Sequence record: PP456878.1
DNA: 64,000 nt
Origin: Pseudomonas phage vB_PaePAO1-KEN19
Reading direction: 5' to 3' (one strand)
Under the pieces are notes generated by a model. That model was not told the origin of the DNA, did not search any database, and was given only the letters and a program-made list of their open reading frames with translations. Position 1 is the first letter of the stretch; every line of letters begins with the position of its first letter. Shown here piece after piece: positions 1,046-58,384 of this stretch. The position numbers and the translations under genes are program-made.

Positions 1046-3538
1046 TTATTTTAATACTAGATTTTTATTAAATACTTCTGGAGTACTAATATTAGCTGGA
1101 TCAAGTACAATAAATTCAGCTTGGTTAAATGCACCGTGTGTTGATTCAAAGTGGCTGATGAAGAACACTTGATTAACAATGCCATTTTCAATTAACCTGT
1201 TAATGAATGGAATAGCATTGGCTCGATGTTGTTCATCAAAAGTCCTGCTAAATTCATCTAAGAAAAGGGGCATGTCATCTAGATGTAAAAATTTCAAGAT
1301 AGCCATTCTAAAAGCAAAATCAACAATCTCTAATTGTGAGTCAGACCCGTATTCAATGTCCGGTGGCTGAACGTCACCACCTGCAATATGCATTGGGAAC
1401 TTATAATCCATGTCATCTTTGTCAACATTAGAAGGTAATACTTCTAACCTATAAGTCCAAATCTCATTGATGTATGCATTTACTAGTTTAACTACTCCTT
1501 GTAAGAAACCTAATAAATAGCGACCAAGAATACCACTTTTTGGTGATAATGCTTTTTCAAGAATAGCTAAATCAGTAGCCATTTGTTGTGCATGGTTAAC
1601 TTCTGATTCTAAAACTTTAATACGTTCTTCATGACGTTCCATTTCACTTAAACGGCTATGTACACTAGATAGTTCTAAGTTAACAGCATCAATCTCCGCT
1701 TGGTATGCCTTATCTACAAAGTTGTCAGCTGTATCCACTATCTTTTTAATAAACTGCTCCCACCGTTCAATAAAAGAATGATACTTATCTTCCCATTCAC
1801 GAATAGCATTACCAGCTTTATTGAAATGAGCTGCTTTTCTTTGTAAGTCAGTTGCTACATGTGTTTTATTATTAATTTCAGTTTCTAGTGCAGTTGTACG
1901 TGCCTTAATGAATCCTAATGCATCTTGATCCATCTCAGCAATAACACGTAGTCGTTGAGCTAATAAAGTAGCTTCCGCATGAGCTTGCTTAGAGACAATG
2001 AGTTGCTGCATTGCATCTCGCCAGTCTAATGCATCATTTATATATTTTGCTGGTGTGCGATACATTACGATATGCTCAGCTACATAGTTCCATAGCGTAT
2101 CAAATTCATTATACTCTTTCGTTAATTGAACGTAGCCATGTACATAACTTACATATTCATTGAAATCAGTCATGTACTGTTCAAGAACCTTGATCTCATT
2201 TGAACAGCTATCCATTGCTTCGTCTAACTTAGCTTTGCGCTCTTCTGCTATTGTGATATCTTGTTCACTAACACCAGGTTTAAATGAATGAGTGCACGAT
2301 GGACAAATAATAGATGCACATTCCTTAAATGAATTTAGGCGTTGATTAATTTGTAAATACATGCCTTCCATGGTTGAGTATTTACTTTTTAATTCTTTTA
2401 GCCTTTCTGCATTTTTAATAGCAGTTTCTTTACTTAAGTAACCATTCTCATTATTAGGAAATGTAGTGAGAAGTTTGATCCAACGATCTGAGAGATCAGT
2501 AAGTTTACCAGATGGATCACCGTTAACAGAAATGTCAACCAAAGGAAATCTACCGGTATACTTCTTATATTTACTAATAGCTTCTTCAGCAATGCGTGTA
2601 TGATGTTCATGTCTGTCCTTAAGTTCTTGTATTTCTTCTGGAGACATACGTTCAGCTGTATTCGGATTAGAGCTTTTTAATTCTTCTAATTCTTCAACTA
2701 AACGTGCAATAACTGCTTGTATAGATTTATATTCTTCAATCTTCTTATTATTTAGTTCTAAGAAAGATTCATACCCATCTACTTTAACTTGAATAGGTAA
2801 CATTGGAAATGACATTAACAATGAACGAGCTTCATCTAAGATAGAATCTAATTCTTTACGTGCAGTGGTTTCATCTCTAAAATGAAGGACACCTTTCTTA
2901 TCACGTGTTTTATAAAGTAAATCAATACGACTAACTAACCGTTGTTTCACTTCTTTCAACTGTGTCATTTCTGAATCATTCAATACCCCATGGTGTTCTG
3001 TGACCAATCGCTTATTAATTGTTTTAACAGTACCTTGCTGGTTAGATAATTCTTTACGTACTTTGTTATAAACATTAAATGCATAATCAAGGTTAACTAC
3101 AGACATTCTAGTTAACCATGCTTTACGTTCATTAGGTTTTAACTTTGTAAAACGCATCTTACCTGTCAACATTTCATGCAGTTCTCGGTTTAACCCGAAA
3201 TGCACCATTACAAGTTCTTCTTGTTCTTTAAAGGTATGACCACTATTTAATTCTTCATCATTACATAAAAAGGAATGATGTCCAGTGCCACGGTTATATT
3301 TAGAAATTAATTTATAGTCTTTACCATTTGCATGACAATGGAAATGTTTCTCGCCACCTTGCTTGAAGTTTGAACTGCTAGATACAACAGGTGTCAGTTC
3401 ACTAATAATAGATGATTTGCCAGAACCATTACTACCAAGTATAACCATCATCTGTTTGCTTGGAGTCCATTCAAAATAATGTGTATTATTGGCCATCAAC
3501 CTAGTATAGCCAATTAGCTTAAGTAGCTTGATCTGCAT
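1046..3538 (-). CDS. SbcC/Rad50/SMC-like P-loop ATPase with a long coiled coil (830 aa)
   Basis: N-terminal Walker A 'GSNGSGKSS'. Very long heptad-rich middle. C-terminal 'LFLDEFSRTFDEQHR' looks like an ABC-type Walker B/D-loop. Confidence 0.6.
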   Translation of the reverse strand: MQIKLLKLIGYTRLMANNTHYFEWTPSKQMMVILGSNGSGKSSIISELTPVVSSSSNFKQGGEKHFHCHANGKDYKLISKYNRGTGHHSFLCNDEELNSGHTFKEQEELVMVHFGLNRELHEMLTGKMRFTKLKPNERKAWLTRMSVVNLDYAFNVYNKVRKELSNQQGTVKTINKRLVTEHHGVLNDSEMTQLKEVKQRLVSRIDLLYKTRDKKGVLHFRDETTARKELDSILDEARSLLMSFPMLPIQVKVDGYESFLELNNKKIEEYKSIQAVIARLVEELEELKSSNPNTAERMSPEEIQELKDRHEHHTRIAEEAISKYKKYTGRFPLVDISVNGDPSGKLTDLSDRWIKLLTTFPNNENGYLSKETAIKNAERLKELKSKYSTMEGMYLQINQRLNSFKECASIICPSCTHSFKPGVSEQDITIAEERKAKLDEAMDSCSNEIKVLEQYMTDFNEYVSYVHGYVQLTKEYNEFDTLWNYVAEHIVMYRTPAKYINDALDWRDAMQQLIVSKQAHAEATLLAQRLRVIAEMDQDALGFIKARTTALETEINNKTHVATDLQRKAAHFNKAGNAIREWEDKYHSFIERWEQFIKKIVDTADNFVDKAYQAEIDAVNLELSSVHSRLSEMERHEERIKVLESEVNHAQQMATDLAILEKALSPKSGILGRYLLGFLQGVVKLVNAYINEIWTYRLEVLPSNVDKDDMDYKFPMHIAGGDVQPPDIEYGSDSQLEIVDFAFRMAILKFLHLDDMPLFLDEFSRTFDEQHRANAIPFINRLIENGIVNQVFFISHFESTHGAFNQAEFIVLDPANISTPEVFNKNLVLK

Positions 3539-3587
3539 GATTAACCCTTAATAATGTCTTACTCTATAGAGTTAATAACCCTAGTAA

Positions 3588-4760
<1,173 letters not shown>

Positions 4761-55102: not shown

Positions 55103-56650
55103 ATGTCAAGTCCAAAACAATTACTCGTTTCATGTATCACTCTATTATGTTTAGAAAATCGAGAAGATTCTCCTGTGGAACCATCCAATGAATTGGTTAC
55201 CGAGATTCTTGATACTCTAAATGATAAGGGTGGTACATTAGATGTAGATCATGGTCGGCAAACATTTTTAGATCTTCGTAATCTACTAGTGGATCTAAAT
55301 AAGAAACAGAAAACATATTTCCCAGCTACCCAACAGGTATTACAATCACTACAAGTATGTTGTCGTGAAGAAAGTTATCTATACGATGCTGTTAAAAATG
55401 CGGTAGAAGAAGAATTTCCAAATGGCATGGCATTAGCTATGCGTGTAACATCATATCGTCGTGATCTAAATAGCTACTTAGCTGATGAAAAGGTAAAAGC
55501 TATTGTAAAAGAATGTTCATCAAAAATTCTTTTCAATAGAGGCTCTGCTGATATTCCGGCAATCATTAATGAAATGGCAACCAGAGCTGACCCATATATT
55601 CGCGCCCGTGCTGAAGAGAAACACCCAGCTGAAATGGGTGCACTTGATTTTGGTAATTTAGATTCTATTGAAGGATTCTTCGAAGAAGCTAAAACCATTC
55701 TTTCACCAAATGGTGCTTTCCGAACTGGATGGAAAGGCTTTAACCGTATGCTTGGTGATCTAGGTGCATTAAAACGTGGTGAATTCATTATTGGTGGTGG
55801 CCTACAACACCAATATAAATCTGGCGTTTCTATGAGTCTATTTTGTCATGTATGTCTATTTAATAAACCATACATGCGTGATATCAATAAGAAACCATTA
55901 GTAATGTTTATTACTCTTGAGAATGAGATTCCGGATAACCTTATTTTCATTTATGAGTATATTTACGAAAATGAAACAGGTATCAAGGTAGATCGTAGTT
56001 CCATTAGTAAAGCTGAAGCAGCTGAATATGTATCAGCTCGTCTTCGTGAAAATGGTTTCGAGCCAGTAATGTACCGTTTTGACCCGACTGAATTTACGAT
56101 TGCTGGTTTAGTTAACTATCTAGATACATATCAAGCACGTGGTTATGAACTACAATATCTCTGCGTAGATTATCTAAACATGTTGCCTAAAACTGGATTA
56201 GTAACCAGTGTAGCAGGTGATGACGTTCGTCTCCTATTTAGGCGAATGCGTAATTATACTGCGCCACGTGGTATTACATTCTTTAGTCCACACCAGTTAA
56301 GTTCTCAGGCACTAGAACTAATCAGGGATAATATCCCACCAGAAGACTTTGTTAAACAAGTTGCTAACAAAGGTTACTATGATGGTTGTCGTCGACTTGG
56401 GCAAGAACCTGATCTGGAATTCTTCTTCCACATTGTTAAAGTAAGTGGTAAGTATTATCTAACTGTACAACGTGGTAAACACCGTAACGTTGTAAGTGAT
56501 AGTAAGCATCACTATTTTGTTATGCCGTTTGATCCAGACCGTATTGGTGGTATTAGATGGGATATCGATAAAGAAGAAAACAATTACATGGATTTCGTAC
56601 CAAGTCTTAGTAACATGCAAGCAACTGGTGGAGATGACTGGGGATATTAA
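55103..56650 (+). CDS. DnaB-family (SF4) helicase-like protein with a non-canonical P-loop
   Basis: N-terminal helical domain plus C-terminal RecA-like domain. 'EFIIGGGLQHQYKSG' sits at the H1 position, 'LVMFITLENE' at H1a, 'YLCVDYLNML' at H2, 'ITFFSPHQLS' at H3, and 'GCRRLGQEPDLEFFFHIV' at H4. Confidence 0.45.
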   Translation: MSSPKQLLVSCITLLCLENREDSPVEPSNELVTEILDTLNDKGGTLDVDHGRQTFLDLRNLLVDLNKKQKTYFPATQQVLQSLQVCCREESYLYDAVKNAVEEEFPNGMALAMRVTSYRRDLNSYLADEKVKAIVKECSSKILFNRGSADIPAIINEMATRADPYIRARAEEKHPAEMGALDFGNLDSIEGFFEEAKTILSPNGAFRTGWKGFNRMLGDLGALKRGEFIIGGGLQHQYKSGVSMSLFCHVCLFNKPYMRDINKKPLVMFITLENEIPDNLIFIYEYIYENETGIKVDRSSISKAEAAEYVSARLRENGFEPVMYRFDPTEFTIAGLVNYLDTYQARGYELQYLCVDYLNMLPKTGLVTSVAGDDVRLLFRRMRNYTAPRGITFFSPHQLSSQALELIRDNIPPEDFVKQVANKGYYDGCRRLGQEPDLEFFFHIVKVSGKYYLTVQRGKHRNVVSDSKHHYFVMPFDPDRIGGIRWDIDKEENNYMDFVPSLSNMQATGGDDWGY

Positions 56651-56704: not shown

Positions 56705-57073
56705 ATGAGTGCAATTGATAATTTAGTAAATACTTTAAGAAAAAATATTAGTGAATGTAGAAAGTTTAATCGCCCTCTATTTGCACGTGTATATGCCGCA
56801 TCACAAAATTACGATAAAATCCGTTATGCTGTAGCAGAAGAAGCCCATTATTTTAAATATGGGAAATATGCAGAGGGTAATAATTTAAACATTGATGAAC
56901 TCATCAGTGATCTTTATTTATATTACACTATTTACGTTGATATTATCCGTAAACCATTACCCGATCCTAATGGGGATTTTATCAGTATCGTAAACCAAGA
57001 TCACTATACACACATCTACTGGGATTTAGATCGGTGTGAATCTATTCCAGATGATGTAAAGGAGTTAATGTAA
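56705..57073 (+). CDS. Hypothetical protein (122 aa)
   Basis: ORF. Confidence 0.5.
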   Translation: MSAIDNLVNTLRKNISECRKFNRPLFARVYAASQNYDKIRYAVAEEAHYFKYGKYAEGNNLNIDELISDLYLYYTIYVDIIRKPLPDPNGDFISIVNQDHYTHIYWDLDRCESIPDDVKELM

Positions 57074-57074
57074 T

Positions 57075-57311
57075 ATGTACTATGGTAATGTTTATATTAT
57101 CTTTATTGGTGGTTTATTAATATTTATCCTAGGATTGGTATTTGGAGGAATACTGGGAGAAGAGAACAATAACGTATATAAACTCAAATCCCAACAATTT
57201 GAATACTGCGTTAAAAATAAACAATCAAAAAATAATGACAGTGAAAATATCCAAGTTATTAAAGTATGCGCAGAGTCTATTGTACTCCTATATCCGACTA
57301 ATGAAAAATAA
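57075..57311 (+). CDS. Small membrane protein (N-terminal TM IIFIGGLLIFILGLVFGGIL)
   Basis: ORF overlapping the previous stop. Terminator 57321..57343. Confidence 0.5.
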   Translation: MYYGNVYIIFIGGLLIFILGLVFGGILGEENNNVYKLKSQQFEYCVKNKQSKNNDSENIQVIKVCAESIVLLYPTNEK

Positions 57312-57339
57312 AGCATTTAAGCCCTCATAGGAGGGCTTT

Positions 57340-57920
57340 TATGTCGTATGGCTAATATGCTAGTAGATAATGAATAAAATCGATTATAGAGCAAATTAGA
57401 AGGTATTAAAGGCATAAAGAAAGTCTATCTCTAGACTTATTATTTTTTAATTAAAAAAAATATAATCTACACTGTGTCTCCTTTTAGGGAGACAGTATGT
57501 ATTAGCTAACGCTATTAGAATAATGCTAATATTGTTTATTATTAGAATAAGGATATACCTTCGGTATAGTTTATTATGAAATAAAAGCCCCTACGGGGCG
57601 ATCCGATTCATCAGTTCCACATTAGGTAATATTCATGAGTAATATTTGATTACCAGTATTACTCAATGATACTGGTAATAATATACTAGGTTATTAACAA
57701 TATGTATTGATTATTCTGATTAAGTCAAATTAGTTAATAAACAAATCAATTATCAACGAGTGATAACTGGTATTGATTACTAGCTAAAGAGATTAATTAG
57801 GATATCTACATGAGGAGTCGCTACCCCATGTATACTGGAGTGTCTCTTTAGCGGGAGACTTAACTCCACTTGGGAGCCGCTTTAGCGGGCGGCTCTCACT
57901 TAAACAAAAAAAGAATTCAG
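57340..57920. ncRNA. Long hairpin-dense non-coding region (candidate structured RNA(s) or regulatory locus)
   Basis: No ORF over 20 codons. At least 8 stem-loops. Two consecutive hairpins share the loop TTTAGCGGG. There are overlapping alternative 9-bp stems, TGAGTAATA/TATTACTCA against TACCAGTAT/ATACTGGTA. Confidence 0.3.
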
Positions 57921-57924
57921 ATAA

Positions 57925-57950
57925 GTCCCTCTCCTGAAGGAGAGGGGTTG
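57925..57950 (-). terminator. Terminator (CCCTCTCC-tgaa-GGAGAGGG) ending the small-gene operon
   Basis: Hairpin. Minus strand then has a CTTATCTGAATTCTTTTTTTG U-run. Confidence 0.55.
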
Positions 57951-57954
57951 TTTA

Positions 57955-58260
57955 TCATAGGCTTCTCCTTTCGGTTACATAGAACTTCTTCTGATCCATG
58001 TCAGTGTCCGTTACTATGAAATTGTCGAAGGGGTTGATGGATACGGCTAAACTTGCGTTGTTGACGTATCCTATCGTAGGACCAGCCCAATAACCAATGA
58101 AGTGACCTTTACGATCTCGACATTGGATAACATTATCAGCGTGTATTTTCGCAACTGACATGCTATGGGTTGATCCATCGGGTCTCTTGAAAAAGAAACC
58201 CACATCCTGCATTCTGTGCAGGTCAGGGCTAACATTGTTAGCGGTAACTGGAATTAACAT
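57955..58260 (-). CDS. Hypothetical protein (101 aa)
   Basis: RBS GAGGAA. Terminator downstream at 57927..57948. Confidence 0.55.
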   Translation of the reverse strand: MLIPVTANNVSPDLHRMQDVGFFFKRPDGSTHSMSVAKIHADNVIQCRDRKGHFIGYWAGPTIGYVNNASLAVSINPFDNFIVTDTDMDQKKFYVTERRSL

Positions 58261-58384
58261 GATGGTTCCTCTTGTTAATCCAAGCCCATTTGGGCGAAAA
58301 TGTTGAGTATTTTTTACTCAACGGCATATAGTCCTACTGCTGCAACAGTAGGGCTAATTCTTTTATTCTTAAATGTTTAACTGA

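Follow-up and report, generated by a model that had tools for sequence, protein, structure and literature searches.

The region from 57,340 to 57,920 of a 64,000-nucleotide (nt) stretch of Pseudomonas phage vB_PaePAO1-KEN19 (sequence record PP456878.1; the stretch at its full length is called the window here) is a composite non-coding spacer between the operon of a DnaB-like helicase and a block of genes in the opposite orientation. Most of the region is already explained in print, and its core is the described locus of a phiKZ non-coding RNA (ncRNA) with flanking terminators. As a whole, we read it as a spacer that carries terminators, a palindrome-embedded middle promoter (P060) and the gene for a stand-alone 197-nt RNA, and consider this reading probable, if well short of certain. 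For phiKZ, the start site of the RNA, its 3' end, its size, its abundance and a read-through form of ~715 nt have been shown in published work.

On the reading favored here, terminators of the phiKZ type, a hairpin followed by TTAT, would close the region at both ends, with further terminator-like hairpins inside. P060, embedded in its palindrome, would drive the RNA through the phage's own non-virion RNA polymerase, and the highly folded 197-nt product would run from G57704 to 57901, just behind the second hairpin of a tandem, duplicated pair. We infer that this second hairpin and the CUUAA behind it act as a phiKZ-type terminator that dispenses with a U-tract, and that the short RNA, as the chief product of the locus, stands alone and is no genuine leader of an mRNA. 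Transcription past this end would then give a non-coding RNA antisense to a conserved open reading frame (ORF) of 101 amino acids (aa), and the short RNA would probably act in trans within a ribonucleoprotein.

Few small RNAs are encoded by phages, and for hardly any of them is the function known; the evidence for the 197-nt RNA is among the best for any candidate from a jumbo phage that forms a nucleus and serves in therapy research. The present analysis adds little to its existence and instead sharpens the questions about it, as the RNA appears to be genus-specific, is probably no leader of real genes and has a long form that would be antisense to a conserved ORF. The additions beyond print are modest: a 58-nt block conserved across genera, an invertible promoter-proximal spacer, the restriction of the RNA to one genus and doubt about the annotated genes p39 and p40.

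The 197-nt RNA and its published transcript

The phiKZ locus has previously been mapped by differential RNA sequencing (dRNA-seq), gradient profiling (Grad-seq), ONT-cappable-seq and Northern blot (PMC8545117, PMC10914365). Gerovac et al. (2021, mBio, PMC8545117) reported the ncRNA candidate '5'UTR_p40', confirmed by Northern blot, as an RNA of ~180 nt found in the RNA polymerase-associated and 30S fractions of Grad-seq, and also detected a longer species of ~880 nt. They described a pair of stem-loops, of which the second may terminate, and proposed premature termination. Putzeys et al. (2024, microLife, PMC10914365; supplement as in the bioRxiv version) mapped the locus by ONT-cappable-seq, with the transcription start site (TSS) of P060 at 114922(-), labelled 'middle promoter' in their Table S3 and also found by Wicke 2021, and the transcription termination site (TTS) of terminator T053, to which the authors give no 'intrinsic' label, at 114725(-). 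Their TU089 is 197 nt long and contains no gene, and TU088, which shares its start site, runs for 715 nt to T051 at 114207. Table S7 of the same work lists 114922 to 114725(-) as '5'UTR-derived', validated by Northern blot and Grad-seq, with an RNAfold energy of -65.1 kcal/mol.

The phiKZ minus strand corresponds to the plus strand of the window, which belongs to a phiKZ-like jumbo phage, and phiKZ coordinates were transferred through locus L001. Over 751 bases around the region the window is 98.1% identical to phiKZ and 100% identical to vB_PA32_GUMS, PhiPizzaParty and others, and all 46 records that match the region are phiKZ-like phages of P. aeruginosa. The published start falls on G57704 (at the junction ATATG/TATTG) and the published end on 57901, three bases past the stem of the second of two hairpins that share a loop, so these two hairpins form the 3' end of the published RNA. 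The RNA aligns with that of phiKZ without gaps and with five differences, in agreement with the sequence of Table S7. By homology to phiKZ 114922-114725(-), 57704-57901 on the plus strand is identified as the already known ncRNA 5'UTR_p40/TU089, and the start at P060 and the T053 end after the tandem hairpins are likewise recognizable at the sequence level. The proposal of a structured ncRNA that had been made from the letters of the region alone thus holds for its right-hand third and fails for a pair of overlapping stems, which lie upstream of the RNA start. The parts of the RNA are as follows:

57704-57901, plus strand: structured ncRNA ('5'UTR_p40'/TU089), 198 positions inclusive, published as 197 nt
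57709-57806, plus strand: long imperfect hairpin domain in the minimum-energy fold
57807-57832, plus strand: short hairpin domain in the minimum-energy fold
57836-57868, plus strand: hairpin 1 of the minimum-energy fold, loop CTTTAGCGGG
57871-57898, plus strand: hairpin 2 of the minimum-energy fold, loop CTTTAGCGGG

The minimum free energy (MFE) of the RNA is -67.9 kcal/mol, and against dinucleotide shuffles its segment is unusually stable on the plus strand (z -5.5) and on the minus strand (z -5.8). Hairpins 1 and 2 are tandem duplicates (repeat D1) that are invariant in 14 aligned phages. Their common loop, which the sequence-only reading had singled out, occurs within the window solely at 57846-57855 and 57880-57889, and both copies sit in a 34-nt tandem duplication whose 27-nt units are 74% identical. 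Across the 14 phiKZ-like genomes the RNA falls into six haplotypes with seven variable sites, nt 140-198 are invariant, and 3.5% of its sites vary, compared with 5-11% in the flanking ORFs. One substitution turns a U.G pair into C-G, three open a pair and none is compensatory.

No relative of the RNA outside Phikzvirus was found in 50,697 phage records, nor a second copy within Phikzvirus genomes, and the segment that holds promoter and RNA (~57600-57900) is absent from Pawinskivirus. To judge from these searches, the RNA is confined to Phikzvirus, a restriction that appears new. A search of IMG/VR for the tandem-loop pattern gave 0 matches, and one for helicase-anchored loci there gave none. 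The loop pattern matched 11 times in GTDB genomes, in each case within unrelated 17- or 34-nt tandem repeats of diverse bacteria, and these matches were rejected as coincidental. A search against Rfam returned no family at gathering score in the whole window, and in 57200-58050, at E<=10, the best sub-threshold match reached 24.8 bits against a threshold of 43 (E 0.12). A scan for tRNA and tmRNA found none.

Leader of p40/p39 or stand-alone RNA

The phiKZ transcript and the RNA described here are alike in locus, promoter, start base, tandem 3' hairpins and length, are 98% identical and show no difference in kind. Beyond the five positions that differ, the point at issue is the '5'UTR' label, as p39 is not a conserved ORF. 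In the published reading, the RNA is the 5' leader of a p40/p39 mRNA and its hairpins act as an attenuator or a riboswitch-like device, with premature termination setting the output of small proteins. The reading frames concerned are the following:

57998-58093, plus strand: PHIKZ117.2 (p40), RefSeq annotation
58097-58306, plus strand: PHIKZ117.1 (p39), RefSeq annotation
57955-58260, minus strand: 101-aa ORF (phrog_25431), antisense to the long read-through RNA TU088

Several observations fit a leader. The short TU089 and the long TU088 start at one site, and the authors themselves class the RNA as '5'UTR-derived' and propose premature termination. In addition, 57783-57792 (GCUAAAGAGA) can pair without a mismatch to the 5' arm and loop of hairpin 1 (57843-57852; inverted repeat I10). 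This competing pairing belongs to the MFE structure of the nascent RNA at 150 nt, and its cost in the complete RNA is only 4.3 kcal/mol. The ncRNA also contains a 13-codon ORF (MRSRYPMYTGVSL) at 57810-57851 on the plus strand, with AGGA 7 nt upstream and a TAG stop in the loop of hairpin 1.

Nevertheless, the alternative pairing abolishes hairpin 1 only and leaves intact hairpin 2, the site of the 3' end, which makes it unlike an antiterminator for the mapped end; as a riboswitch-type antiterminator, the pairing was therefore discarded. No riboswitch or leader family of Rfam matched, and Gerovac et al. saw no small ORF with a strong Shine-Dalgarno sequence (PMC8545117). The genes that such a leader would control are themselves questionable. 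An in-frame stop breaks p39 in 5 of the 14 phages, at codon 3 in this window, Wadjak1 and Churi and at codon 16 in ANB1 and 124.01; p40 is intact, and both p40 and p39 lack a Shine-Dalgarno sequence. With hairpin 2 uncontested, p39 broken and no ribosome-binding site before either gene, the locus does not match a transcription attenuator or riboswitch leader, and we regard the leader reading as unlikely.

Most annotators other than RefSeq call the minus-strand 101-aa ORF rather than p40/p39. It is intact in all 14 aligned phages and in all 46 records, carries GAGGA 8 nt before its ATG and has a canonical terminator directly 3' of its stop. The coding status of p40 and p39 is doubtful, and the RefSeq annotation at 57955-58306 may be on the wrong strand. 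As p39 is broken in several phages and the antisense frame is intact throughout, the '5'UTR' is probably a stand-alone RNA, and this doubt about the p39/p40 annotation appears to be new.

A number of points weigh against a stand-alone RNA and its antisense partner. All of the transcript evidence comes from phiKZ. The fold has no covariation support, as none of the seven variable sites is compensatory; the six haplotypes hold no double changes, and comparative support is absent rather than negative. The 3' end at 57901 could arise from processing or exonuclease trimming instead of termination, and an action of the RNA in trans is putative. Moreover, the RNA is absent from the nearest genus, hence not essential to the virus family. 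As for the 101-aa ORF, no homologue was found outside Phikzvirus, including at the corresponding positions in PS119XW and Psa21, and its protein had no match in Pfam. The protein is 93% conserved, less than its DNA, purifying selection on the ORF is only weak, and ONT-cappable-seq lists no transcript on its strand (PMC10914365). Because the 101-aa ORF, p40 and p39 share third codon positions, substitution patterns cannot discriminate between these frames.

Promoter P060 and the palindrome around it

Promoter and palindrome lie side by side upstream of the RNA:

57655-57704, plus strand: middle-class promoter P060 of the phage non-virion RNA polymerase; TACT at 57684-57687, start G57704 of ATATG
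57640-57688, no strand assigned: inverted repeat with 20-nt arms (57640-57659 and 57669-57688) and a 9-nt spacer (57660-57668), covering the repeats I1 and I17

Listed middle promoters consist of an A-rich stretch, (A/G)TAC(T/C), a distance of 17-18 nt and the start site, often the G of TATG. The window has AATATACT-AGGTTATTAACAATAT-G, with the TACT element followed by the start at 57704, and so belongs to the middle class of phiKZ; P060 was compared by eye with P014, P026, P027, P032, P033 and P038. Among the 14 phages the promoter segment contains one single-nucleotide polymorphism (SNP), at 57690, and the start base is conserved.

The sequence-only reading had pointed to two overlapping 9-bp stems that cannot form together. 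These exist, at positions slightly different from those first given: stem one pairs TGAGTAATA (57636-57644) with TATTACTCA (57657-57665; I17), and stem two pairs TACCAGTAT (57651-57659) with ATACTGGTA (57669-57677; I1). They occupy -68 to -27 relative to the RNA start site and are promoter-proximal DNA, not part of the 197-nt RNA. Both belong to the larger inverted repeat, whose arms are 85% complementary with a perfect core (TTACCAGTAT/ATACTGGTAA); it reaches to -16, and its right arm holds the TACT element.

The spacer of this repeat, 36-44 bp upstream of the P060 start site, is TACTCAATG in the window and its exact reverse complement, CATTGAGTA, in 5 of the 14 aligned phages and 12 of the 46 records, the latter being those with a second, opposite-strand match in the region search. 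Its inversion removes stem TGAGTAATA/TATTACTCA and keeps TACCAGTAT/ATACTGGTA. With one stem lost in 12 of the 46 relatives, a conserved two-state RNA switch is unsupported. Genomes that carry the inversion do not all have the same SNP background, implying that it arose repeatedly or was exchanged by recombination.

Inversions of short loops between inverted repeats, also classed as template-switch or quasipalindrome mutations, are well known in chloroplast non-coding DNA. The present case resembles them in that the 9 nt between the perfect arms are exactly reverse-complemented in some genomes, against differing SNP backgrounds, and differs in lying 36-44 bp before the mapped start site of a phage promoter. 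The palindrome could serve as an operator, or it could be no more than a sequence prone to mutation.

On the minus strand at 57620-57640, the palindrome's left arm itself resembles a middle promoter (AAATATTACT, 18 nt, TAATG). A putative RNA of ~40 nt from there would end at a GC hairpin (57599-57587) followed by TTTTATTT and, at that length, would escape the published long-read mapping, in which reads under ~80 nt are lost (PMC10914365). The supplement of that study contains no TSS or TTS between 114,930 and 115,310; a search for numbers beginning 1150, 1151, 1152 and 1153 gave one match, 115327, which lies outside.

Other hexamers of the region resemble TATAAT, as had been remarked, and carry little information, because sigma-70-like sites are not enriched (9 against 10.9 +/- 2.8 expected) and because Putzeys 2024 (PMC10914365), citing Ceyssens et al. 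2014, report that phiKZ does not depend on the host sigma-70 polymerase for its transcription. Sigma-70 promoters were accordingly dropped as an explanation of the region.

Terminators, the cross-genus block and the surrounding genes

The observation that drew attention to this region is correct and non-random. A stretch of 624 bp (57331-57954) lacks any ORF of at least 50 aa and is about twice as long as the next longest such gaps in the window (196-339 bp). Its G+C content of 26-30%, compared with ~37% for the window, is the lowest of the 64 kb. The left-hand 57340-57703 also folds more stably than dinucleotide shuffles (z -4.5 on the plus and -6.1 on the minus strand), and in all four runs, those of the RNA segment included, no shuffle reached the observed energy. 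The region holds more than 10 local stem-loops, so that the initial count of at least 8 stands, and terminator-like hairpins between 56500 and 58800 number 12 against 1.1 +/- 1.1 expected, a ten-fold enrichment. The features of the spacer outside promoter and RNA are these:

57321-57343, plus strand: intrinsic terminator of the helicase operon (gp118/117.4/117.3), GCCCTC ATAG GAGGGC, then TTTTATG; inverted repeat I5
57475-57494, plus strand: hairpin TGTCTCC TTTTAG GGAGACA; inverted repeat I6; invariant in 14 phages
57513-57577, no strand assigned: two tandem, partly overlapping direct-repeat units TATTAGAATAAKG...TATWGTTTATTAT; D2 (spacing 27) and D3 (spacing 35)
57534-57592 (3501-3558 of locus L003), no strand assigned: 58-nt block conserved across genera, with an extended hairpin at 57545-57575
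57578-57599, minus strand: GC hairpin GCCCC GTA GGGGC, then TTTTATTT; terminator-like in the terminator scan (57599-57587)
57924-57957, no strand assigned: bidirectional phiKZ-type terminator CCCTCTCC TGAA GGAGAGGG; I16

In phiKZ, an intrinsic terminator is a GC-rich stem-loop that has YTTAT within 1-3 nt behind it (PMC10914365). This arrangement is found at 57321-57336 with TTTTATG, and at 57924-57949 with GTTTAT on the plus or CTTAT on the minus strand. The first closes the helicase operon, its stem invariant in the 14 phages and its loop variable. The second follows directly on the stop codon of the minus-strand 101-aa ORF, and its loop at 57935-57938 likewise differs from phage to phage (TGAA, TTTA, TAAA) over an unchanged stem; as TTTA and TAAA are reverse complements of each other, another loop seems to have flipped here. 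Hairpin 2 of the RNA, followed by CTTAA, fits the YTTAT motif in part. The suggestion that the region marks a transcription boundary is loosely borne out, in that it separates convergent units and carries terminators on both strands together with a middle-class promoter.

Other phiKZ RNAs also terminate early, for instance at T102 upstream of PHIKZ221 and at T131 upstream of PHIKZ302 (PMC10914365). They share with the 197-nt RNA a phage-polymerase promoter, a hairpin within 60-225 nt where most transcripts end, and an abundant structured RNA with a minor read-through form. Most of them end at a canonical CCYCCCC...GGGRRGG with TTAT, whereas the 197-nt RNA ends at a duplicated hairpin with CUUUAGCGGG loops.

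Could the hairpins be no more than a terminator or insulator stack at a convergent junction, and the RNA a stable, functionless by-product of a promoter for antisense transcription into the opposing operon? The enrichment of terminator-like hairpins would fit, as would hairpin loops that flip and vary freely over conserved stems, the lack of covariation and the distribution of the locus: promoter and RNA are missing from Pawinskivirus, Psa21 and Noxifer have a convergent gap of ~50 bp at the corresponding place, and Phabio and 201phi2-1, with a different gene order, lack the long gap. Against this, the RNA is abundant and sediments with large complexes, not as free RNA (PMC8545117), it varies less than the flanking ORFs, and a terminator would have no use for the long conserved hairpin made by its 5' 100 nt. 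We consider a by-product improbable, somewhat more so than a leader.

The shorter hairpin at 57475-57494, which had been noted for its TTTTAG loop, is real (GTCTCC TTTTAG GGAGAC, 57476-57493). The pattern GTCTC-N(5-10)-GAGAC occurs twice in the window against 0.12 expected, in this hairpin and in hairpin 1 of the ncRNA (57842-57859), and the two are, to judge by this likeness, sequence relatives. The motif GTTTATTAT was rejected as a general signal, its other copies in the window lying inside genes and lacking hairpins. Direct repeats of the region have two copies only, which is all that it offers towards the putative protein-binding array of the sequence-only reading, and among its repeats the common terminator hairpin alone recurs elsewhere in the window.

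The left part of the spacer (57312-57640), which opens with the helicase-operon terminator and contains several AT-rich hairpins, includes the 58-nt block. Eight Pawinskivirus-type records, PS119XW, PA1C, phiLBG22, BRkr, HPP-Temi and phiHQ among them, carry the block with 89.7% identity in a syntenic place downstream of the helicase operon. Over the surrounding 11 kb, by comparison, coding DNA of the two genera is ~65% identical and the helicase protein 63%. Its hairpin reads GAATAA-GG-ATATACC-TTC-GGTATA-G-TTTATT (57545-57575), and the outer pair of the inner stem, T57554-A57568, is A-T in Pawinskivirus, a compensatory change. Both genera also retain an upstream, more diverged copy of the block unit, and PS119XW has the same two-unit arrangement, with GAATAAGGA twice, 28 nt apart.

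Behind the block come AAATAAAA and then the GC hairpin. PS119XW has a different hairpin (CCTCC/GGAGG) in the same place with the same TTTTATTT tail, so that position and tail are kept between the genera and the sequence differs. Given TTAT-type tails after hairpins on either strand, a bidirectional terminator or insulator is the simplest reading of the left part, a role that leaves 90% identity over 58 nt not obviously explained. The block pattern gave 0 matches in IMG/VR, JGI metagenomes and GTDB genomes, and weak blastn searches (E<=5) returned beyond Pawinskivirus only chance AT-rich matches. Such conservation across genera appears, on this comparison, to be new, and an element kept across two genera far better than the surrounding proteins is a concrete target for deletion and binding studies.

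Phage T4 has origins, oriF(uvsY) and oriG(34), in which a middle-mode promoter is followed by a downstream unwinding element and the transcript primes replication. By analogy, an AT-rich segment with repeats, a palindrome and a middle promoter could be a replication origin, with the RNA as primer or R-loop former. The segment follows immediately on the DnaB-like helicase operon, exceeds every other non-coding stretch of the 64 kb in length, has the lowest GC there, and combines direct repeats and a palindrome with a middle-class promoter that is followed by ~100 AT-rich nt. The likeness to T4 thus extends to the promoter class, the AT-rich transcribed segment and nearby replication genes. To our knowledge, no replication origin has been mapped for phiKZ.

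The direct repeats, however, exist in two copies only, GC skew shows no inflection beyond gene orientation, the junction is convergent rather than divergent, and the locus is absent from Psa21, Noxifer, Phabio and 201phi2-1, where the gap is ~50 bp or missing, and in part from Pawinskivirus. As far as the sequence tells, the locus also departs from T4 in that it has a discrete, stable RNA, is not conserved among relatives and gives no skew signal; in phiKZ the RNA accumulates as a free species with a defined 3' end (PMC8545117). A replication origin at this place seems to us very improbable. We give equally little credence to the broader idea that the promoter palindrome, the AT-rich first 100 nt and the cross-genus block together make up an origin, or else a different cis-acting DNA element belonging to the phage nucleus, the RNA serving as primer or R-loop former.

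On its left, the spacer is flanked by three genes of the helicase operon:

55103-56650, plus strand: DnaB-like helicase gp118, left flank of the region
56705-57073, plus strand: PHIKZ117.4
57075-57311, plus strand: PHIKZ117.3 (p41)

In ANB1, OMKO1 and SL2 a deletion of 196 bp (window 57090-57285) removes most of PHIKZ117.3, which is therefore dispensable, and extends the non-coding gap to ~840 bp. On the other side, a second non-coding stretch conserved with Pawinskivirus lies at 58284-58364 (3970-4045 of locus L003; 76.8% identity over 82 nt), upstream of the 101-aa ORF, and contains a hairpin at 58329-58356.

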